Shown here in pieces: positions 1 through 47,341 of a stretch of DNA of 64,000 bases (positions within the stretch are counted from its first letter, which is position 1; each line of letters starts with the position of its first letter). The notes beneath the pieces are model-generated. The model saw nothing but the letters and a program-made list of their open reading frames with translations, was not told the origin of the DNA and searched no databases. The stretch covers positions 38,086-102,085 of the forward strand of contig JAFWRO010000014.1 of the NCBI GenBank assembly GCA_017519885.1, written 5' to 3'. The translations under genes and the position numbers were made by a program. This DNA comes from Bacteroidales bacterium (GTDB taxonomy: Bacteria; Bacteroidota; Bacteroidia; Bacteroidales; UBA3663).

Positions 1-356
1 GCACTCTCTTCCGATTCGAATTGTCCTTCTGGCACTTCGGGATCGAACATGGCATTTTCCAATTCCTCTACCCCATTCATACGAGCTTCAACAGGCGGTT
101 GATACAAACAGCCTTTGAAAATGTAGAAGAGCACATTGGCGACGATGACAAACAGCACAAACAAGATGAGCAACTTGCGTATGCTCCATCCGTCTTTGGG
201 TTTATTGTATCGTCCCTCTTCCCTATCGAAACTCTTTTTCTCGGGCACGGAATCATCTTTTGAACCCTCTGCCGACGGATTAACTGGCACAGTGTTCTTG
301 TCGAAGGTTTCGTCCTTACCGATGATACGAATTTCAGAATCTTTTATGTCTTCCAT
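1..356 (-). CDS. Hypothetical single-TM membrane protein, partial (runs off the left edge)
   Basis: Read by hand from ATG at 356: MEDIKDSEIRIIGKDETF...WSIRKLLILFVLFVIVANVLFYIFKG..., open to position 1; starts 18 bp after the LytTR stop. Confidence 0.75.
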   Translation of the reverse strand, partial: MEDIKDSEIRIIGKDETFDKNTVPVNPSAEGSKDDSVPEKKSFDREEGRYNKPKDGWSIRKLLILFVLFVIVANVLFYIFKGCLYQPPVEARMNGVEELENAMFDPEVPEGQFESEES

Positions 357-374
357 TGTTCCGACAAAAAAACA

Positions 375-740
375 TTATTTGATAACACCATTGTCGTATG
401 CATTTTTCAACGCCGTGAGGGCATCCTTCGAAGCAGTGATTGGGTATCTCACACCACAACCATTGCTCAGAATGAGCTGGCCCTTGGACGGATTGATGAC
501 ATAGACATAGTCGAGATTGATAATCAAGCTGCGGCCCACACGCAGGAACCGGTTGTCTTCCTTATCAAGTTGTTCGCGCATGATTTCTTCAAGTTGTCCC
601 AACTGGCATACCAGCACCTGTTCGTCATCATCGGCCATCTTGAAACGGGAATAGTTCCCCTCGGCAGCAATATAGACGATGCTGTCGATCGGGAACCTGT
701 AGAGGCCAATGGTGTTGGAGATTGTCAGATGCGAGGTCAT
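375..740 (-). CDS. Stand-alone LytTR DNA-binding domain protein
   Basis: IVYIAAEGNYS and FLRVGRSLIINL motifs; 121 aa, no receiver domain. Confidence 0.9.
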   Translation of the reverse strand: MTSHLTISNTIGLYRFPIDSIVYIAAEGNYSRFKMADDDEQVLVCQLGQLEEIMREQLDKEDNRFLRVGRSLIINLDYVYVINPSKGQLILSNGCGVRYPITASKDALTALKNAYDNGVIK

Positions 741-781
741 CCTTGAATTGTTTACAATAAAACGCTTTTAATTATTTGCTG

Positions 782-885
782 CAAAGATAAGGGTATTTTT
801 TGTATTCTCCAAACCAAAAATCATCAACCAAGTCCGCCGGCACCCCTATTTTGTTTAATTTAACACTTTCGATGGTGCAAAGATA
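782..885 (-). promoter_or_regulatory. Two tandem Bacteroidetes -7 elements (TATCTTTG on minus) upstream of lytTR
   Basis: CAAAGATA at 782-789 and 878-885 match the TAnnTTTG consensus. Confidence 0.65.
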
Positions 886-922
886 GGGTTTATCAAACAT
901 ATTTCCAAAAAAAATGGGACAA

Positions 923-954
923 ATTGTACGAAACCCATATCCTATTGTACGAAA
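923..954. promoter_or_regulatory. Direct repeat ATTGTACGAAA x2 at 21-bp period; candidate LytTR/AraC-type operator
   Basis: Copies at 923-933 and 944-954, just upstream of the minus-strand promoter. Confidence 0.5.
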
Positions 955-962
955 TGTCTCGT

Positions 963-973
963 GTCACTTTTAC
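963..973. promoter_or_regulatory. Candidate NrtR box (GT-N7-AC)
   Basis: gtGTcacttttACgcataa. Confidence 0.55.
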
Positions 974-1070
974 GCATAAATAACAATCACCAATTAATTC
1001 GAACAAATGGGATACAATACCAAATAACACATAAATTTTTGATAGTGTATTGAAATTTGACTATGTTTAT

Positions 1071-1081
1071 GTAAAAATGAC
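1071..1081. promoter_or_regulatory. Candidate NrtR box (GT-N7-AC)
   Basis: ttatGTaaaaatgACgcaataa. Confidence 0.55.
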
Positions 1082-1162
1082 GCAATAAGTCGGGGTGTCA
1101 GATAGCAAAATTGAAGATTTGTAGAGGAAAAGACACATTTTTTGAAAAAAGTTACGAAATAG

Positions 1163-1194
1163 TTTGGTGGATGAAGAAATTTTTCCTATCTTTG
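1163..1194 (+). promoter_or_regulatory. Bacteroidetes promoter (-33 TTTG, -7 TATCTTTG) for the ECF sigma gene
   Basis: TTTG 1163-1166, TATCTTTG 1187-1194, ATG at 1222. Confidence 0.7.
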
Positions 1195-1221
1195 CAGTGC
1201 AATTCGACAAACTTTAGCGAT

Positions 1222-2025
1222 ATGAAGAGAGAGTATTTTGAAATCATGAACACGGAAGAGGAGAAAATTACTCGTTCGAAAATGTTGGAACTTTTGACGA
1301 AGCGTTACGGAATTCCGGAATTCGACGCCAAAGACATTCTGCAAGACGCCTGGCTGGTCCTTCTGGAAAAGCTGATGGTTGGAACACTTACCGAGAAGCC
1401 GAAAAACCTGATGGCTTACATGACGAGCATTTGCATCAACAAAGCTCACGAGTACCTCCGCAAGCGGACGTACGAGAACCTGGAGACTTCGCTCGACGAC
1501 GAAAGCATCCTGCCCGAAAGGCTTGACTTGATTCAGAAAGAGATTCAATCGTGGATTGACTTCATCGAAGAGAGCGAGAAGGCACAGCAACGCAAGATGG
1601 AGGCCATCGAACAGGCCATCCGAACGCTCAACCCTCGTCAACGAGCTTTGCTCGAAGGTTACTACTACGACAAACGAACGATGAGGGAACTTGCACAGCA
1701 ACTGGGCTACAGCAACGAGGACGTAGCCAAGAGCACCAAGAACCGAATCATCAAAACGATTCGCGAAACAATCAAACAGCAGGAGAGAGCCAAACAAAGC
1801 AGGCTCTCCCCTGCTGCCTTTTTAAAGGTTATAGTTCGTGATGCCCAAGATCTGCCAGAAGTCGGCTGGAAGGGTAACATTCTCGAGCATAATGCAGTCG
1901 CGGAACAGCGGAGCAATCGTCGAGGGTGTGTAGCCTGCAATGCCACAACCGATACGAGTCACGAGGAAGCGCATATCGGGATGTTCGGCAGCGAACTTCG
2001 CAAACCGTTCCACAGCGCCAGTTAA
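1222..2025 (+). CDS. ECF-type sigma-70 factor; reading frame extends through a terminator into the convergent gene
   Basis: Region 2 DAKDILQDAWLVL...YMTSICINKAHEYLRK; region 4 LNPRQRALLEGYYYDKRTMRELAQQLGYSNEDVAKSTK; sigma-like sequence ends near 1820. Confidence 0.85.
   Translation: MKREYFEIMNTEEEKITRSKMLELLTKRYGIPEFDAKDILQDAWLVLLEKLMVGTLTEKPKNLMAYMTSICINKAHEYLRKRTYENLETSLDDESILPERLDLIQKEIQSWIDFIEESEKAQQRKMEAIEQAIRTLNPRQRALLEGYYYDKRTMRELAQQLGYSNEDVAKSTKNRIIKTIRETIKQQERAKQSRLSPAAFLKVIVRDAQDLPEVGWKGNILEHNAVAEQRSNRRGCVACNATTDTSHEEAHIGMFGSELRKPFHSAS
1777..1823. terminator. Intrinsic terminator-like hairpin between convergent genes
   Basis: CAGCAGGAGAGAGCC-loop-GGCTCTCCCCTGCTG (1 mismatch) followed by a T5 run. 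Confidence 0.7.
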
Positions 2026-2895
2026 GCTTGCGATGCCTTCCATCGTCGGGATGGCATAGCTCTGACCCTGCAAGCCTTCACCCTGTCCCCAGATGGCGCC
2101 GAAATGATGCATAGCTGCTGCAGCCGCACCACCTGCATGATAGCCCCTGATGTTGCTACCGAAGACGAAGATCTCACCGGCATTAAGCGAGCTGATGTTG
2201 TCGGGGGTTACTCTTGGACCATAGTATTCGCGTGCGAACTGACGCTTTTGCTCCATCATCTCCATTGCAGAAAGCGATGCCTCGTGGCCGTACATATCGT
2301 TCATCTTACGATAATAGGCTCTCTTCGAAGAACGCTCACGAAGCCAAGTGTTATGGGTTCCACGTTCATCGTGGGCAAATTCCACCACATTGTCGATTGC
2401 CAGAAGGTCGGTCACTTCCTTCACGTTGTGTGCCGAGCCCATATAGGAGAATGTCCAGCCTTCGGTCTTCAGCTTTTCAATCAGACTGCGAAGGGCAGAG
2501 GCTGTCCATTCGCGGGAAGAATTCTCCAATCCATCGGTCAAGACCGTGACCACGGCAGCCGCATCGGGGTCATCCTTGATGCGGTCGTGCAGGCGTGTCA
2601 GCGACTGGCCCATCGCATCGTAGAGAGGCGTGCCTCCACAAGGCATATAGTCAGTGAACTCCTTGACCTCCGCGATAGGCTTGTTGTCGATCATCGTCCG
2701 CACATAAGGAGTGTTACCCGTGTCGAAAGTGACAAGCGTCAGCGTATGATCCTGCGTCTCTTTAAACTCCTCCTGGGCACTGCGGATGGTTCCAATCGTC
2801 TCGTTGATTCCCGAAAGGGTTGCTTCCCTCAGGTGTCCCATTGATCCACTCTCATCAACGATAATCAAGTTGTAAATACGTGCTTTTTTCTCCAT
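1822..2895 (-). CDS. vWA domain fused to an A1S_2505-like (putative macro-like) C-terminal domain
   Basis: MIDAS-type IIVDESGSM, GGTPLYDA, VLTDGLEN; C-terminal EIFVFGSNIRGYHAGGAA...SYAIPT...FLVTRIGCGIAGY. Confidence 0.8.
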   Translation of the reverse strand: MEKKARIYNLIIVDESGSMGHLREATLSGINETIGTIRSAQEEFKETQDHTLTLVTFDTGNTPYVRTMIDNKPIAEVKEFTDYMPCGGTPLYDAMGQSLTRLHDRIKDDPDAAAVVTVLTDGLENSSREWTASALRSLIEKLKTEGWTFSYMGSAHNVKEVTDLLAIDNVVEFAHDERGTHNTWLRERSSKRAYYRKMNDMYGHEASLSAMEMMEQKRQFAREYYGPRVTPDNISSLNAGEIFVFGSNIRGYHAGGAAAAAMHHFGAIWGQGEGLQGQSYAIPTMEGIASLTGAVERFAKFAAEHPDMRFLVTRIGCGIAGYTPSTIAPLFRDCIMLENVTLPADFWQILGITNYNL

Positions 2896-2970
2896 AACAA
2901 TTGTTTTTTAAGTTTGACTGTTAATAATATATTTAAAAGGTGTATTATTCAAATAAGACAGCTTCACCAA

Positions 2971-3813
2971 TCAGAATGTCTTGATGTAATGTCCTTTCTC
3001 CTGCAGCCGTCCGATGACCTCGATGAAGCGTGAAGGCAGTTTGTCGAGTGCATCACCGGCAAGATCAGAGGGGATTTCCTTATAGAAGGCTTCGGCTATG
3101 CCGCCCGTAATGCAGGCAATGGTGTCGCTGTCGCCACCCAGAGTGACAGCCAGTCGAATAGCATCCTCGTAGTCTCGACTATCGAGGAAGGCGACGATGG
3201 CTTCGGGTACCGTGCCCTGGCAACTGCCATTGAAATAGTAGGTCGGACGAATGTCATCGCAGGTGCGATGCAGGTCGTATCCATATTTCTCCTCGATGTA
3301 TTTGCGGATTTCCTCCTTCGTGCTGCCTGTCCGTGCCATGAAGATGGCTGCCGCCGTGGCTTGTGCTCCCTTGATGCCCTCGGGGTGATTGTGAGTGATG
3401 GATGCCGAGATTTCGGCAGCATTCTCGGTCTGCCAAAGTGTATCGAACATCCAGCCTACTGCCGAAACGCGCATGGCCGAACCATTGCCCCAGGAATTGT
3501 AGGGGACTCGTTCGCCGCCCGTATAGAAACCGCGATAGTCCTTGAGTTGCTCGGGATAGAAGAGCCAGGTGCGGAAGCCACCACCATATCCTCCCATCGG
3601 GCAGGGAAATTCGTTGGCAAACTCCACCAGTTTCTGTTCCAGAACCGCGTGCGAGAGGTTGGGGTCATCGAGAAGCCACTCGGCAACTGCCACAGTGCAG
3701 ATGCTGTCGTCAGTGAAATTGCTAAACAGGTCGAAGAGCGGGAAGTTGTAGTCATGCGTGTTGCAGAACTCGAATGTTGATCCAGCGATATCGCCTATGA
3801 TTGCTCCTAACAT
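2971..3813 (-). CDS. ADP-ribosylglycohydrolase (DraG/ARH family)
   Basis: GAIIGDIAGS, FTDDS, GNGSAMR, THNHPEG, GGDSDTIACITGGIAEA motifs. Confidence 0.93.
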   Translation of the reverse strand: MLGAIIGDIAGSTFEFCNTHDYNFPLFDLFSNFTDDSICTVAVAEWLLDDPNLSHAVLEQKLVEFANEFPCPMGGYGGGFRTWLFYPEQLKDYRGFYTGGERVPYNSWGNGSAMRVSAVGWMFDTLWQTENAAEISASITHNHPEGIKGAQATAAAIFMARTGSTKEEIRKYIEEKYGYDLHRTCDDIRPTYYFNGSCQGTVPEAIVAFLDSRDYEDAIRLAVTLGGDSDTIACITGGIAEAFYKEIPSDLAGDALDKLPSRFIEVIGRLQEKGHYIKTF

Positions 3814-3892
3814 ACGTGTATATTTTTAATTGGGTTTACTTGTTTTTGGAATGTTTCCGGCGGCACAAGCCACCGGAAAATTGTGAGTGGGT

Positions 3893-4516
3893 TTATTCTT
3901 CGACAGCCTTGACGTAGAAGTATTTCGGATAACGACCTACGACGAAGAGCGTCACCGGGCAAAGCCAAAGGGTGCGAGGCATTGATTCTCCCGTCAGTGG
4001 GTGTTTGCGTATAAACTGTTCAGTCTTGTTTCCTCGAACCGTATAAGTGGCACCTCCTGTCAGCGAAGACTGAGTCTGAGACAATTCGTGCCAACCGTCC
4101 TGCATAAGCTGCTGGAATTCCGCCTCGTCAAGCTTTTCGGAAGTAGCCTTCGCGATAATCGAGACTCGATCCTTTCCTTCACTCAAGAGGTCCAGGAACT
4201 TGTCCGCGCCACAAACCATCTCAAGGTTACCCTTCTTCCAAGGCCAATTCGGGAAATCAACGAACCAGCGATCCTCCTCTTCGCGATTGAAGGAGAGCTT
4301 GTATTCCTCCTTACGACCGGTAATGGCACTGCCCAAAAGCCTTACCAACTTCATTACGCTCATTCCGTCCACATCGCCATAACCGGACAACTGTTCGGTC
4401 ACGACCTTGCGAATCTCGGAAATCGAGAGGCTATCGGCTGTCATCTGATCATTGTCACGAACTGTCTTCTTCGAATTTTCTGTGTTACTCATTGTTCTTA
4501 CTGTTTGGTTAAACAT
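3893..4516 (-). CDS. Hypothetical protein, DUF6717-like C-terminal domain (start may be 4492)
   Basis: MVCGADKFLDLL and WLCPVTLFVVGRYP motifs recalled from DUF6717; family call is tentative. Confidence 0.65.
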   Translation of the reverse strand: MFNQTVRTMSNTENSKKTVRDNDQMTADSLSISEIRKVVTEQLSGYGDVDGMSVMKLVRLLGSAITGRKEEYKLSFNREEEDRWFVDFPNWPWKKGNLEMVCGADKFLDLLSEGKDRVSIIAKATSEKLDEAEFQQLMQDGWHELSQTQSSLTGGATYTVRGNKTEQFIRKHPLTGESMPRTLWLCPVTLFVVGRYPKYFYVKAVEE

Positions 4517-4546
4517 TCAGAGATTTGTCATCCCTCATTATTATGT

Positions 4547-4557
4547 GTCAAAAAGAC
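4547..4557. promoter_or_regulatory. Candidate NrtR box (GT-N7-AC) just upstream of the DUF6717-ARH-vWA genes
   Basis: ttatgtGTcaaaaagACcaaaa. Confidence 0.6.
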
Positions 4558-4676
4558 CAAAAGGTAAACATATTTCCCAAAATAGAAAGAATTTTGTACA
4601 AAAAAAATAAATCTTCAGCCATATAAAGGGAATAAGACCTTTTGCCAACTAATAATGCAAAGCATATGCCAAAAAG

Positions 4677-4701
4677 AAAGTGCGTCAGATTGACACACTT
4701 T
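4677..4701. promoter_or_regulatory. Candidate NrtR box, 25-bp imperfect palindrome
   Basis: AAAGTGCGTCAGATTGACACACTTT with a GT-N7-AC core at 4684-4694. Confidence 0.65.
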
Positions 4702-4774
4702 AATATGAAAACAAAAGAAAGGTTTGTTCCTAAAAAAGAAGAATACTGACAATCTGTCACAGATTAGCGACATA

Positions 4775-5545
4775 TCAGAAGATCAGGTTCGAGAGCCTGC
4801 CGGTGCGCTTGAATTCCTCGTACTTTTCAAGATTAAGCTGATAGTTGATGTTCCTCGATTCGGTGGGGAATACATCAAGAATGCCACTGTCGAGCATCTT
4901 ACGAGCAAAATTGCGACGGTCGAAATTCTTTTCGAGAATGGCCTCATAGAGTTTCTGGAGCGTCGACATCGAGAATCGCTTGGGCAAAAGTTTGAAGGCC
5001 AAAGGTTCGAAGCACAACTGCTGTTGCAGACGGATATGGGCTGCGGTAATGATTTCGTCGTGGTCGAAAGCCAGAAACCGCATACCGTCAGGCAGATTCT
5101 TGATGGTATTGAGCACCTGATAAAGTGGAACCCATTTGGCATCGGCAGCATCATCTCCACCCCGTACAGGTTGGATGGTCACCAAAGCATAATAGGCGTC
5201 CGTGATCGTGATGCATCGAGGATCTCGCCCTGGAGTACTCCATGTACCAAGTTCATAGATGTTCTGAACGTCGAAGCCGGTCTCCTCCTTCAGCTCTCGT
5301 TTGGCACATTCAAGGAGACTCTCGTTCTTCTCCTCGACCACCAAGCCGTATTCGTTGGTCTTGGCCTCGATTTTGATGAAACCACCCGGCAGAGCATAAC
5401 GTCCCTTGAAAGGTTCAATGCCTCGTTCGATGAGCAACACCTTCAGGAGTTCATCGGTCATATCGAAACCGAAAATGACACAATCGGTGGTGACTGCGGG
5501 TCGTGGATAGATATATCCAAAGTGGGGTTTTTCGTGATTTTCCAT
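4775..5545 (-). CDS. nrtR: NrtR-family regulator (Nudix + winged HTH)
   Basis: YPRPAVTTDCVIF, ALPGGF...RELKEETG, PGRDPR, LAFDH, then LLPKRFSMSTLQKLYEAIL...DRRNFARK wHTH. Confidence 0.88.
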   Translation of the reverse strand: MENHEKPHFGYIYPRPAVTTDCVIFGFDMTDELLKVLLIERGIEPFKGRYALPGGFIKIEAKTNEYGLVVEEKNESLLECAKRELKEETGFDVQNIYELGTWSTPGRDPRCITITDAYYALVTIQPVRGGDDAADAKWVPLYQVLNTIKNLPDGMRFLAFDHDEIITAAHIRLQQQLCFEPLAFKLLPKRFSMSTLQKLYEAILEKNFDRRNFARKMLDSGILDVFPTESRNINYQLNLEKYEEFKRTGRLSNLIF

Positions 5546-5626
5546 ATCTTTTGACTTTGTTTCGGCAAAGATACACGATTTCAGGGACAAAAACAAGTCT
5601 TAGAGGATATTTCTTTCAGAAAACGC

Positions 5627-5637
5627 GTAATTTTAAC
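5627..5637. promoter_or_regulatory. Candidate NrtR box upstream of nrtR (autoregulation)
   Basis: aaacgcGTaattttaACacaaaa; nrtR -7 element CAAAGATA lies near 5566-5573. Confidence 0.55.
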
Positions 5638-5650
5638 ACAAAACAACAAT

Positions 5651-6862
5651 TTATGCAGTCTCTTTCTTCATCTTTGGCAGATAGACGGCTATGATGCCAA
5701 GCAAGGGAAGCAAGGCACTGACCTTAAAGATGAATAGGATGCTGGTCTGATCGGCCAGCCATCCAAAGAAACTGCTGCCAAGTCCTCCCAGTCCGAACGA
5801 AAGGCCATAGAAGATGCCTGCCACCGTGCCTGTATGATGCGGCATGAGATCGGTGGCATAAACGAGGATGGCCGAGAATGCGGACGCCATAACCATACCA
5901 ATCACGATGGACAGACCAACGGTAGCGGCAAAGCCATCGAGATAAGGAAGTAGCAACGTGAAGGGTGCAGCCCCGAATATCGAGAACCATATCACATACT
6001 TTCGACCATACTTGTCACCAATCCATCCTCCCACGATGGTTCCAACGACCTGAGAGGCAAGGAAGGCGAAGAGACAGACTTGTGCATTGGCCACCGAAAT
6101 GTGGAATTTGTCGATGAGGAAGAATGTAAAATAATTAGTCATACTCGAAGTATAGAAGTTCTTCGAGAACATCAGCATAAATAGGATGAAGATGAAGAAA
6201 TAGATTCTTCGCCGGCTATATTGCTTCGCTGTAGCCCAATGCTCGACGGCTTTCTTTCGTGCTTCTTTCATCTCCTGCACAAGCCATCGACCGATGTAGC
6301 CTAAGATGATGGCAAGAAAGATGGCTACGAAGGCGAGCAGGCGAACACCAGCAAGCCCTCTTGGCAGTACGATGAGTGCAGCAAGTAATGGGCCAATGGA
6401 ATAACCTCCATTGCCGCCTACCTGAAAGATGCTTTGCGCCAATCCCTTCCGTCCTCCTGATGCTACCTGTGCCACTTGCGAAGCCTGAGGATGGAAAATG
6501 GACGAACCGCATCCCATCAGGACAACGGCCATCAGAATCATCTCGTAGCTCGTAGCATATGACAGCAGCAGGATGCCTGACAGTGTAAAGAGCATGCTCA
6601 CAGACAACTGCCAGGAATGGTGGTGTTTGTCGGCATAAAACCCAACAAACGGTTGCAGGATGGACGATGTGACCTGAAGCACCAACGTGATGGCTCCAAT
6701 CTGAGCAAAACTCAGACTGAAGTCCTCCTTCAGAACAGGAAAGAGTGCAGGGATCATCGACTGCATCGTGTCGTTGAGCAAATGACAGAAGCTGACGATG
6801 AAGAGTATGGTAAAGGCGGTTTGGCCTGTCCTTCTGGACTTGGACAATTCCTTTTCGTTCAT
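5651..6862 (-). CDS. MFS transporter, fosmidomycin-resistance (Fsr)-like
   Basis: SFCHLLNDTMQS, SSIFHPQ, GLAQSIFQVGGNGG; about 12 TM segments. Confidence 0.88.
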   Translation of the reverse strand: MNEKELSKSRRTGQTAFTILFIVSFCHLLNDTMQSMIPALFPVLKEDFSLSFAQIGAITLVLQVTSSILQPFVGFYADKHHHSWQLSVSMLFTLSGILLLSYATSYEMILMAVVLMGCGSSIFHPQASQVAQVASGGRKGLAQSIFQVGGNGGYSIGPLLAALIVLPRGLAGVRLLAFVAIFLAIILGYIGRWLVQEMKEARKKAVEHWATAKQYSRRRIYFFIFILFMLMFSKNFYTSSMTNYFTFFLIDKFHISVANAQVCLFAFLASQVVGTIVGGWIGDKYGRKYVIWFSIFGAAPFTLLLPYLDGFAATVGLSIVIGMVMASAFSAILVYATDLMPHHTGTVAGIFYGLSFGLGGLGSSFFGWLADQTSILFIFKVSALLPLLGIIAVYLPKMKKETA

Positions 6863-45619: not shown

Positions 45620-47341
45620 TTAAAAAGTGTAAGAGCAGCCCACGATCAAGCAACGCGAATTAGGCTTGGTCACGGTTGTCATGTCGTAGTCCTTGTTGGT
45701 CAGAATCTGCTTGCGGTCGGGCTGCAGGATGTCCTGTACGAAAGCATACATTGCCCATTGGCCTATCTGCTTCACGGCACGGAATGACCAGTAGAACGTT
45801 GGACGATTGTAGTAGTAACGATGCGTCTCTCGACCCGTGTAGAGCAGCACCGTGGCCAATGTCCAGCCCTTAGGCAACTCAAACTGTGGACGTGCCTTGA
45901 AACTGTAGGACCATGCCCGGTCGGACGACACGCTCTCACCATCGTAGTCAAGATACTGGCCATGGAAGCCCATCGTCATAGAAAAGAGTCCATACCTTAC
46001 CTCACCCTCGGCGGCATAACGCAGGTAACTGTAGCGTGCATCGTTGATCCACGTCTTCACCGAACGCTGGGATGCCTCGTCATACGACGAAATCTGAGAG
46101 ATATCGTCATCGATGCGCTTGTAGGCCAAACTGTGTGTCAGCGTCCAATGCTCGCCTGAATAGGTATAACTTCCCTTAATCTGGCTGTTCTTCGAAGGAC
46201 CCAGATTGCTGTTACCCACAACGATTACGCCAATGCTGCTACCGATGTGGACGAAGGGATAGAGTTGCGTGTAAGTGGGACGTGCTATGTCGCGATCGTA
46301 ACTCAGTACGAACTTGTTTTTCGCATTGAGTTTAGCAGTCGCCTTGGCAGAGAGCATCCAGTCGTTGTAGGTCTTGTCGTGGCTGGCGGTCCGATGGTCG
46401 TCGATGTCGTTGATGAAATTCTCGTAGCGGAAGGTCGCATCGAGGGTAAGCCAATTATGGGAATAGTTGGCCGAAAGTGAAGTCAGCGACGAATAGGTGT
46501 TGAAGTTGAAATCTGTTTCGGTGTCGCTGATGCTCATATCCTCGATGGTGTATTTCTCCTCGATGCCAAACTTGAATCCATTCCAAGTCTTCGACTGGAA
46601 CCGTACCATAGCGTATGGGTCGAAGTTATGGAGTGTCTGGTTCTGCTCGCGCAGCGACGATTCGGAATGTGCCCCCCAAGTGTCCGACTCCACATCGGTG
46701 GGCTTATAATTGTATTTAAGATTGAGGCGTGTCGTCAGACGGCCCCACTCCTCGAAGTCCTGGATATACTGCAAGAGGCCACCCAACTTGAGGTCGCGGT
46801 TCGAACGACGCTGTTCCTCGTAGTTCGACTCCTGCTCAGTACCATCAGCCTCATGGCCATTCTTTATAGTACTCTCGCTCACACGATTGTGGTCGAAACT
46901 TTCGAGCAAGCCAATGGTAAATATGCTTCCCTTGACAGGTTGGTAGTCGAGACGCGTCGAGAAGTCCTGTTTCTCGTATTTTGTCAGGATGTTCGAACTG
47001 GTAAGTCGGTCGGCACCGCTCTTGAAGTCAGTCGAAACATCCTTCTCTGTATTCAGTTCACTGAAATCGACCGACAGTTGACTCGTCAGCAGCAGGTTGT
47101 CCTTCAAATAGGTGACATAGCCCGAAGGCATGGCACGACCATTGCTGCTGGCGCCCAGATAGGCTCCACCATAGACGTGCGACGAGTCGGGCTTGTGTTC
47201 CAGTTCATCACCCACGTCGTAGGCATCCATGATGCGTTTGGCAATACGTTGAAATTCGTTGGTATCCTGTGCATGCAAGCCTACAGAGCCAACTAGGCTC
47301 AGTGCTCCTGCGAAGAAGACAATTTTTCCAATTCTTCTCAT
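45620..47341 (-). CDS. Outer-membrane beta-barrel protein
   Basis: Signal peptide; RPTYTQLYPF...VGNSNLGP; C-terminal GCSYTF. Confidence 0.8.
   Translation of the reverse strand: MRRIGKIVFFAGALSLVGSVGLHAQDTNEFQRIAKRIMDAYDVGDELEHKPDSSHVYGGAYLGASSNGRAMPSGYVTYLKDNLLLTSQLSVDFSELNTEKDVSTDFKSGADRLTSSNILTKYEKQDFSTRLDYQPVKGSIFTIGLLESFDHNRVSESTIKNGHEADGTEQESNYEEQRRSNRDLKLGGLLQYIQDFEEWGRLTTRLNLKYNYKPTDVESDTWGAHSESSLREQNQTLHNFDPYAMVRFQSKTWNGFKFGIEEKYTIEDMSISDTETDFNFNTYSSLTSLSANYSHNWLTLDATFRYENFINDIDDHRTASHDKTYNDWMLSAKATAKLNAKNKFVLSYDRDIARPTYTQLYPFVHIGSSIGVIVVGNSNLGPSKNSQIKGSYTYSGEHWTLTHSLAYKRIDDDISQISSYDEASQRSVKTWINDARYSYLRYAAEGEVRYGLFSMTMGFHGQYLDYDGESVSSDRAWSYSFKARPQFELPKGWTLATVLLYTGRETHRYYYNRPTFYWSFRAVKQIGQWAMYAFVQDILQPDRKQILTNKDYDMTTVTKPNSRCLIVGCSYTF

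Follow-up and report, generated by a model that had tools for sequence, protein, structure and literature searches.

Systems centered on ADP-ribosylglycohydrolases (ARGs) have been predicted to reverse the ADP-ribosylation that viruses impose on their hosts (Iyer, Burroughs, Anantharaman, Aravind 2022, Viruses 14:1977, PMC9503650, section 3.8). As set out in that section, they combine an ARG that lacks a coupled ADP-ribosyltransferase (ART) with repressors of the Nudix-helix-turn-helix (HTH) or WYL type, proposed to sense ADP-ribose, and with phosphatases, chaperones (vWA proteins among them), additional Macro/NADAR domains, and an enigmatic component named ARPP. They are reported from actinobacteria, planctomycetes, and proteobacteria, and a coupled phosphatase (rhodanese-phosphatase, calcineurin-like, HD, or HAD) is present in approximately 55% without being obligatory. 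Here, a related locus is described at the beginning of a 64,000-nucleotide stretch of DNA from a Bacteroidales bacterium (GenBank assembly GCA_017519885.1, contig JAFWRO010000014.1, positions 38,086 to 102,085), which is called the window. Four co-oriented genes encode an NrtR-type regulator, a DUF6717 protein, an ADP-ribosylglycohydrolase (ARH), and a fusion of a vWA domain with an A1S_2505 domain (Table 1). With a rough probability of 0.55, these genes encode a locally regulated cytoplasmic module for handling ADP-ribose, which would be a Bacteroidales variant of the ARG-centric systems directed against ADP-ribosylation by phages or toxins.

The genes were called from six-frame open reading frames (ORFs) and Pfam and NCBIfam scans of the window proteins. 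An earlier note, made from the letters alone, had proposed an ADP-ribose-related module under an NrtR-type regulator, and all seven genes of the region were found at the positions and in the order and orientation that it gave. As judged from sequence, the four genes are one functional module, because the regulator has an operator of the family form that is unique in the genome, the adjacency of the genes recurs, and their domains are fused in other proteins; the metal-binding residues of the ARH are also kept. No signal-peptide-like start is visible in any of the four operon proteins (0/4, read from the ORF translations).

The window ARH resembles the systems of PMC9503650, section 3.8, in having no coupled ART or sirtuin. 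The one-component Nudix-HTH regulator (with WYL alternatives at some DUF6717 loci), the vWA protein as a peptide-binding chaperone type, the presence of other domains of the ADP-ribose type, and the variable, accreting gene content are further likenesses. Unlike those systems, the locus belongs to rumen Bacteroidales and has a core of DUF6717 and vWA-A1S_2505 in which the ARG is optional (6/80 loci). Section 3.8 names neither DUF6717 nor A1S_2505, and an overlap under another name (ARPP, TY-Chap) is possible, although the 135-aa core of DUF6717 seems too small for the ARPP architecture given there. What is new here is the Bacteroidales variant together with two uncharacterized domains, DUF6717 and A1S_2505. 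The statement of the earlier note that no description of the combination was known has to be withdrawn, since systems of this kind and with the same logic had already been predicted (PMC9503650), and the pairing of nrtR with draG had been noted (PMC2330246).

Table 1. Positions, strands, and supporting evidence of the features of the locus, in window coordinates
Feature	Position	Strand	Basis
Predicted membrane protein, N-terminal 118 aa	3-356	-	six-frame ORF; directly downstream of LytTR gene
LytTR-only DNA-binding protein, 121 aa	375-740	-	PF04397 40.8 bits
ECF-type (extracytoplasmic function) sigma-70 family factor	1222-2025 (ORF from 1111)	+	TIGR02937 65.7 bits, cut-off 42.9
GC-rich hairpin between convergent vWA-A1S and sigma genes	1798-1815	both	terminator-like score on either strand
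vWA + A1S_2505 fusion gene	1822-2895	-	NF049995 138 bits over residues 242-346
A1S_2505 domain, fusion residues 228-357	1825-2214	-	NF049995 138 bits
vWA domain, fusion residues 1-222	2230-2895	-	metal-ion-dependent adhesion site (MIDAS) motif intact
ADP-ribosylglycohydrolase (ARH/ARG), 280 aa, cytoplasmic	2971-3813	-	PF03747 120 bits, cut-off 26.2
DUF6717 protein, long form, 207 aa (199 aa from ATG at 4492)	3893-4516	-	PF20475 73.8 bits
Candidate weaker NrtR site O2, GTCTTTTTGACACAT	4543-4557	-	GT-N7-AC core; read by eye
Promoter-like box TTTACCTTTTGG upstream of DUF6717 gene	4557-4568	-	single window match
Sigma-54-like -24/-12 element TGGCATATGCTTTGCA	4656-4671	-	7 nt downstream of O1
Candidate NrtR operator O1, 21-bp palindrome AGTGTGTCAATCTGACGCACT (gene strand)	4679-4699	.	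core GT-N7-AC
nrtR, Nudix + winged-helix regulator, longest ORF 273 aa	4775-5596	-	NUDIX (PF00293) 53.6 bits, NrtR_WHD (PF21906) 54.3 bits, both above cut-offs
MFS transporter gene	5651-6862	-	54 nt upstream of longest nrtR ORF
C10 peptidase-LRR (leucine-rich repeat) gene, 1029 aa	6977-10066	-	upstream, same strand as operon

Domain fusions and gene linkage

The strongest argument that the block serves one pathway, and that this pathway acts on ADP-ribose, comes from the fusions of A1S_2505. Its profile was searched against 1.84 billion representative proteins and matched 5463 representative clusters (50% identity) at E<=1e-3, of which 798 were matched at E<=1e-30. The best 150 representatives were scored with hidden Markov models (HMMs) from our own alignments. 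A1S_2505 stood alone in 113 of the 150, and the others carried vWA-A1S (15), ARH-A1S (11), A1S-ARH (2), ARH-ARH-A1S (1), A1S-A1S (3), part of NrtR joined to A1S (3), DUF6717-A1S (1), or DUF6717-vWA-A1S (1). A triple DUF6717-vWA-A1S fusion is present as an open frame in locus L083. Pfam was run on the 128 representatives of at least 190 aa, with 22 shorter ones omitted, and found ADP_ribosyl_GH in 16, microbial PARG in 6, DUF1810 in 6, Sigma70_r4_2 and VWA in 3 each, and NUDIX, HIRAN, and DUF6717 in 2 each. The DSP-PTPase families PTP-SAK, Tc-R-P, and PTP-NADK were each found in 2/128 and PIN in 1/128. Read from these architectures, A1S_2505 connects the four operon products with one another as a hub, and the great majority of its partners are domains that process ADP-ribose.

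The A1S_2505 domain has an alpha/beta architecture, contains two Gly-rich loops, and keeps S, N, H, Q, Y, T, C, and N residues invariant; its invariant motifs are F-V-F-G-S-N, G-x-H-x-G-G, Q-G-x-x-Y-x-I, and T-x-x-G-C-G. The structure model of the vWA-A1S_2505 protein is confident (mean predicted local distance difference test (pLDDT) score 90.3, predicted template modeling (pTM) score 0.87). Fold searches with this two-domain model returned vWA matches only (VIA-wide, Foldseek PDB) or mostly vWA matches (BFVD), and the vWA domain fills the lists. The domain calls of the earlier note held with the exception of its macro-like label, which was not confirmed: A1S_2505 has no Pfam family and no Pfam Macro match, and hhalign comparisons with alignments from Bacteroidales genomes gave P 0.09-0.2 for Macro (23 sequences) and P 0.08-0.35 for LOG. 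These outcomes do not count against either fold. By eye, the Gly-rich loops resemble the ADP-ribose-binding loops of Macro domains, and the automatic name of a neighboring cluster in the ESM Atlas is 'putative Macro'; neither observation is evidence of membership. In the excerpts available from the full-text literature, 'A1S_2505' appears only as an Acinetobacter locus tag.

The linkage was studied from the side of DUF6717. A word-based homologue search gave 318 relatives from Bacteroidales or Prevotella-type sources, and a pattern scan of one genome per GTDB species gave 224, of which the best 80 loci were used. Nearly all of these are from rumen or gut Bacteroidales metagenome-assembled genomes (MAGs), and in 58 of the 80 the sequence extends 2.5 kb or more to each side. 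Partners were counted with HMMs from our own alignments on six-frame translations. A vWA gene lies within 1.2 kb of DUF6717 on the same strand in 37/80 loci, and vWA is fused to A1S_2505 near DUF6717 in 26/80; three more (L060, L064, L078) have A1S_2505 in another architecture with DUF1810. NrtR is directly upstream of DUF6717 in 15/80 loci and within 6 kb in 17/80. ARH was found in 6/80, namely the five closest relatives (L004-L008) and L060. The gene-neighborhood search proposed in the earlier note thus found the linkage of DUF6717 with vWA-A1S and NrtR, but the place of the ARH as a core member was lost. By these counts, the conserved core is DUF6717 with vWA-A1S_2505, and ARH is an addition specific to certain lineages.

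The most telling single locus in this comparison is L060, on a Prevotella MAG contig, where one strand carries genes for sigma, ARH, NrtR, DUF1810, a DUF1810-containing protein, A1S-DUF1810, DUF6717, an unknown protein, DUF6717, and vWA. Its gene order is unlike that of the window, and its proteins are 29-47% identical to the window proteins. Elsewhere, parts are gained and lost between close relatives and the distribution is patchy; in L004-L007, synteny with the chromosomal flanks is preserved. Other loci have a WYL-WCX protein next to DUF6717 (cluster c17, with L073 as its representative). Starting instead from the vWA-A1S protein, a search of 301 genomes spread evenly over the order gave matches in 45. 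The full-length fusion was found only in the source genome (G000) and G150. Of 29 non-self vWA/A1S loci, examined with 1.5-kb flanks, 5 had an adjacent or fused ARH, 3 had NrtR, and none had DUF6717.

Further families recur around DUF6717. DUF1810 (PF08837), solved as M. tuberculosis Rv1873 (PDB 2jek), is found beside DUF6717 and fused to A1S_2505 (L011, L013, L015, L060, L064, L078, L083) and may be another member of the same network. A 360-430-aa protein without a Pfam or NCBIfam family lies approximately 1.1-1.3 kb directly upstream of short-form DUF6717 in L017, L047, L061, L068, L070, L071, L074-L076, L080, and L081. In BLAST clustering it groups with multi-domain A1S/DUF1810/DUF6804 proteins, a sign of a common unnamed domain. 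A distinct neighborhood (L021, L023, L025, L031, L044, L059) has an ECF-like sigma gene and a gene for a 265-320-aa protein upstream, and genes for an M54-like metallopeptidase, a C92 (YiiX-like) amidase, and two unknown proteins downstream; L023 has no sigma match, and L025 is cut at its upstream end. In L049 (7929-9191), DUF6717 is fused to Sel1 repeats.

The window DUF6717 protein is of the long form, with a helical N-terminal extension of approximately 65 aa before a beta-rich core. In the model, the block-mean pLDDT of the core is approximately 76-94, and the extension is poorly modeled. The invariant residues D87, D105, R181, C186, and K198, together with many aromatic residues in the alignment, suggest a pocket or an active site. 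No PDB sequence match, fold match, or ESM Atlas match was found, and approximately 8.4 million full texts contain no mention of 'DUF6717'.

DUF6717 is also encoded on 38 viral contigs, some longer than 300 kb, and this distribution bears on two alternatives. In the first, the module would repair nucleic acids by acting on ADP-ribose, or on 2'-phosphate/ADP-ribose-1''-phosphate products, at RNA or DNA ends under the same regulatory logic. A phage cassette in L145 and L153 places DUF6717 two genes downstream of a 218-231-aa RNA ligase (PF09414), with an unknown protein of approximately 152 aa between them and another of approximately 132 aa after it, and ORFs of the same sizes recur in L142, L148-L152, and L154. 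Other phage copies lie beside DUF2828/DUF7788 (L161) or beside vWA and a calcineurin-like phosphoesterase (L141), and the A1S_2505 fusions to HIRAN and PIN (2/128 and 1/128) point in the same direction. Against this, the window block has no ligase, kinase, or phosphoesterase in the Pfam scan, vWA domains are generally protein binders, ARH families mostly act on protein-linked or small-molecule ADP-ribose, and the phage neighbors are few and mostly unannotated. Repair of nucleic acids is thus considered unlikely.

The second alternative is a domesticated phage-derived cassette whose parts normally serve phages in counter-defense against host immunity based on NAD or ADP-ribose and which has no host-protective role here. 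Besides the 38 viral contigs, it draws on PHROG matches for 5/5 proteins, on the NCBIfam name of the A1S_2505 family ('phage non-structural'), and on A1S-like domains in proteins of crAss-like phages (ranks 7, 10, and 12 of the BFVD fold search). Yet the first 10 kb of the window and the 14 kb preceding it showed no phage structural, integrase, or replication gene, the synteny of L004-L007 with their chromosomal flanks is kept, a dedicated repressor and operator are conserved over two clades, and the partners are not found together on viral contigs. This origin is regarded as quite improbable for the locus. On one viral contig (L139:6031-7029), DUF6717 has an unannotated C-terminal extension of approximately 190 aa and lies beside ARH and a CpXC protein.

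ARH is the only enzyme of known chemistry in the block. Its FTDDS and GGDSDTIA motifs align with the metal-binding YTDDT and GGDTDTIA motifs of ARH3. Tri1 provides immunity to the toxin Tre1, and DraG acts in the nitrogenase switch; the window ARH belongs to the same superfamily, keeps the metal-site motifs, and shares with them the concept of enzymatic ART reversal. Unlike both, it scores far below the equivalog cut-offs (39 bits against 490 for Tri1 and 34 against 337 for DraG), and no cognate ART adjoins it. No ART or sirtuin Pfam family was detected among 20 neighboring proteins, a scan that a divergent ART could escape. The vWA domain has the vWA fold and a complete MIDAS (D14-x-S16-x-S18, T89, D121), which places it in the family; vWA domains generally bind proteins. 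A second, stand-alone vWA paralogue with 41% identity is encoded in the source genome (G000:C55:26715-27299; L207:6719-7300), and no other module gene was detected within 6 kb of it with our own HMMs.

Regulator and candidate operators

The ATG at 5545 (MENHEK...) is the likely start of nrtR. Its product has an intact Nudix box, RELKEETG, which is preceded by a 13-aa insertion in the window clade, and the RE-x2-EE box is retained in 14 of 15 regulators of the gene cluster. The closest solved relatives are AraR of B. thetaiotaomicron (5bs6, 6.7e-25), an E. faecalis protein (2fml), and Shewanella NrtR (3gz5, 1.2e-16). AraR senses L-arabinose; it comes from the same phylum and is the best solved sequence relative, but its Nudix box is degenerate (RVLAELTG in the alignment), whereas the window regulator keeps RELKEETG and no arabinose genes adjoin it. 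The intact box, unlike that of AraR, favors a nucleotide-diphosphate ligand, and ADP-ribose or a close derivative is the likely one.

Classical NrtR regulons control NAD synthesis or salvage, pentose use, or phosphoribosyl pyrophosphate (PRPP) (Rodionov et al. 2008, NAR 36:2047, PMC2330246). In the same work, NrtR sites are 21-bp palindromes with a GT-N7-AC core, and nrtR lies beside draG in Streptomyces. The window agrees with this description in its Nudix and winged-helix regulator, in O1, which has exactly that operator form, and in the nearby ARH gene. It differs in that the block has no NAD, pentose, or PRPP gene and the operator is unique in the genome. Pfam and NCBIfam scans found no NAD-salvage gene in the block or its flanks, as the earlier note had said of the block, and the Pfam scan found no pentose or PRPP gene within the block. 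The regulator scores 111 bits with NF050029, below the equivalog cut-off of 400; taken together, these results place the locus outside the classical NrtR regulon of NAD biosynthesis and salvage.

These observations bear on a further alternative, in which a metabolic NrtR regulon would serve the housekeeping turnover of free ADP-ribose-type metabolites, such as O-acetyl-ADP-ribose or ADP-ribose released by NAD consumers. NrtR regulons are classically metabolic (PMC2330246), the regulator itself may hydrolyze ADP-ribose with its intact Nudix box, and the genomic flanks are of the housekeeping type: the 14 kb to the left encode queC, an ADP-forming acyl-CoA synthetase, a thioesterase, a SPOR protein, and two CotH-like proteins. 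What speaks against it is the lack of NAD-salvage, pentose, or PRPP genes in the block and of the operator elsewhere in the genome. The patchy distribution, gain and loss of parts, and phage homologues are typical of accessory or conflict genes, and a vWA domain with MIDAS argues for a macromolecular partner. Free-metabolite turnover is consequently given a low likelihood.

O1 lies in the 258-nt spacer between nrtR and the DUF6717 gene. The pattern of its 19-bp core has one exact match in the 4.1-Mb genome, and with two mismatches there are 3 matches, the same count as for a reversed control. Sixteen of the 17 NrtR-bearing loci were scanned (L005 was omitted as near-identical to L004) for 21-mers with the GT-N7-AC core and at least 8/10 symmetric arm positions. 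Counterparts of O1 with diverged sequence were found in the same spacer in 9/16 loci (L004, L006-L008, L027, L036, L038, L048, L057) and just upstream of nrtR in two more (L050 and L082), a total of 11/16; L030, L039, L040, L043, and L060 have none. The chance expectation from mononucleotide shuffles is 0.13 per 8 kb. The palindrome arms differ between the two regulator clades, GTGTGTCA... versus TGTGTAAA..., with the symmetry preserved.

The remaining alternative is that the genes are mere neighbors and the palindrome is only the terminator of nrtR. In the window clade, O1 likewise has the score of a terminator-like hairpin and is followed by a T-run, and ARH is absent from most DUF6717 loci. 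Against these points, the palindrome of the second clade has no trailing T-run, and in L050 and L082 the palindrome cannot serve as a terminator, since it sits upstream of nrtR. For these two reasons, an operator is the better reading of O1. In addition, A1S is fused with vWA, ARH, DUF6717, and NrtR parts, and the adjacency recurs in varied orders, so that mere neighborhood is disfavored as very improbable.

Bacteroidetes promoters have a -7 element with the consensus TAnnTTTG, which the box upstream of the DUF6717 gene resembles, with one extra T. The box is common to the long-form DUF6717 loci L006-L008 and L010-L012, has one change in L009, and is missing in L013. In the genome, TGTTTACCTTTTGG has 3 matches versus 1 for the control; the two additional one-mismatch copies are at G000:C8:31627-31640 and G000:C26:48586-48599. 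O2 abuts the box directly downstream, and its right arm resembles that of O1. The NrtR-bearing clade (L006-L008) has O2, and the NrtR-less L010-L012 lack it at the same place. The second clade also has a second site, which overlaps a similar box, TACATTTTGG. A two-operator arrangement of O1 with O2 as a weaker candidate is possible. The sigma-54-like element was set aside as a regulated promoter and left as an observation, because it is kept only in the closest clade (L004-L008) and no activator gene was seen nearby; the window has 2 matches to it versus 0.19 expected, the second at 47131-47146 (+), and rpoN is present in the genome (C37).

Sigma factor, LytTR pair, and flanking genes

The ECF-type sigma factor consists of regions 2 and 4 only, and no recognizable anti-sigma gene was seen in the Pfam scan of the window. 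A related sigma factor was found within 6 kb in 18/80 DUF6717 loci, that is, in 10/10 loci with the long form and 8/70 with the short form. A functional link is plausible, given its constancy with long-form DUF6717, its presence in L060, and the fusions of A1S to sigma region 4, and the factor may belong to the module. Its start is set at 1222 because a canonical-looking -7 box (TATCTTTG) lies at 1187-1194, and equivalents precede the homologues. The sigma ORF and the convergent vWA-A1S gene share 204 nt at their 3' ends (1822-2025). Homologues in L009-L013 end at ..LSP(A/V)AF.., and the conserved part in the window ends near 1833 (..LSPAAFLK). In the window clade, there is no stop at this point, and approximately 64 extra codons run antisense to the vWA-A1S gene. 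The GC-rich hairpin at 1798-1815 sits where the homologues end. In L009-L013, a near-identical leader of approximately 50 nt (..CATCCCAAAGTCC..GGGTGCTGGGATAACCAACAGTC..) with hairpin potential lies approximately 60 nt upstream of sigma, for example around 12060-12130 of L010 on the minus strand. This leader, which the window sigma gene does not have, could be a conserved element of the 5' untranslated region.

The LytTR gene is divergent from the sigma gene and is followed directly by the gene for the membrane-type protein; the pair spans L003:13414-14826. The full membrane-type gene (L003:13414-14442) encodes 342 aa with one hydrophobic segment and no Pfam or NCBIfam family. In HdrRM/BrsRM-type systems, a LytTR regulator is paired with a membrane inhibitor, and the window pair resembles them in layout alone. 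It lies beside the module in L004-L006 only, with distant LytTR matches in L016 and L072, and is probably a separate two-gene regulatory pair with local synteny only. The second regulatory tier envisaged in the earlier note accordingly has comparative support in the case of the sigma factor (10/10 long-form loci and L060) but not in that of the LytTR pair.

Upstream of nrtR, the MFS transporter and C10 peptidase genes were rejected as operon members because they are kept only in the nearest relatives. The 1029-aa protein combines a Spi-type inhibitor prodomain, a C10 (streptopain-like) peptidase, and BspA-type leucine-rich repeats, and it is probably a protease that is secreted or placed on the cell surface. 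At L003:3687-8062, 6-10 kb left of the window, two adjoining CotH-kinase-like proteins of 799 and 638 aa, one with a lamin-tail domain, and a Cthe_2159-like carbohydrate-binding protein are encoded. Short contigs (165-600 nt) from RNA libraries (4 runs, 4 studies) touch every gene of the block; no inference on expression is drawn from them, since strand, level, and ends are unreadable and DNA carry-over is possible.

Proposed mechanism and significance

The proposed mechanism begins with the NrtR-type repressor, which would bind O1 and probably the weaker O2 at the promoter and thereby keep the DUF6717-ARH-vWA/A1S_2505 operon off. A ligand of the Nudix site, likely ADP-ribose or a close derivative by analogy with the family, would release the repressor, and the trigger would be a foreign ADP-ribosyltransferase. 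ARH would then cleave ADP-ribose from modified macromolecules, the vWA domain would hold the modified protein or a partner, and A1S_2505 would recognize or further process the ADP-ribose moiety. DUF6717, which has a conserved Cys and is the constant partner of vWA-A1S_2505, may act as an additional subunit that binds a ligand or is catalytic. The ECF-type sigma factor encoded next to the operon may either feed into the same circuit or be an output of it.

Several observations weigh against an ADP-ribose-handling module of this kind, in addition to the terminator-like score of O1 and its position approximately 110 nt upstream of the conserved promoter-like box. O2 is weak, being symmetric at just 5/10 arm positions and read by eye. 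The best solved relative of the regulator is an arabinose sensor, so the ligand could differ from ADP-ribose. ARH, the enzyme with known chemistry, is missing from 74/80 DUF6717 loci, and many of the 80 come from related rumen MAGs and are non-independent. Among the 38 viral contigs, ARH occurs in 1, vWA in 1, and an NrtR-like match 5 kb away in 1; because viral copies almost always lack the partners, the role of DUF6717 may exceed ADP-ribose. Profile searches of PDB sequences found no solved relative of A1S_2505, and fold and profile searches gave no fold or ligand for either A1S_2505 or DUF6717. The block has no phosphatase, compared with approximately 55% of the systems in PMC9503650, section 3.8, although DSP-type phosphatases are fused to A1S_2505 elsewhere. 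Finally, 0/8 proteins match PADLOC-DB v2, apart from a chance-level Nudix hit (E 0.0025).

A bolder extension of the ADP-ribose-handling module, held to be doubtful though somewhat less so than repair of nucleic acids or metabolite turnover, is that A1S_2505, with its at least 5463 clusters and its invariant His/Cys/Asn/Ser set, is an unrecognized and very widespread domain that recognizes or cleaves ADP-ribose. With DUF6717 and vWA, it would form a new ADP-ribose-triggered sensor-effector wired to NrtR and a dedicated ECF sigma factor in rumen Bacteroidales. If this were true, damage by ARTs of crAss-like phages or toxins would switch on a transcriptional program and not merely a repair enzyme.

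Host systems that undo the ADP-ribosylation imposed by phages or rivals have been predicted, and section 3.8 of PMC9503650 describes no experimentally tested example. The present locus is compact and testable: besides a regulator and a candidate operator, it has a single enzyme with established chemistry and two conserved but uncharacterized domains. Gut and rumen Bacteroidales, like their phages, carry A1S_2505 in abundance, yet the domain has neither a Pfam family nor a solved relative detectable by sequence. Ligands for A1S_2505 and DUF6717 would annotate thousands of proteins and would make the bacterial sensing and reversal of foreign ADP-ribosylation directly testable.

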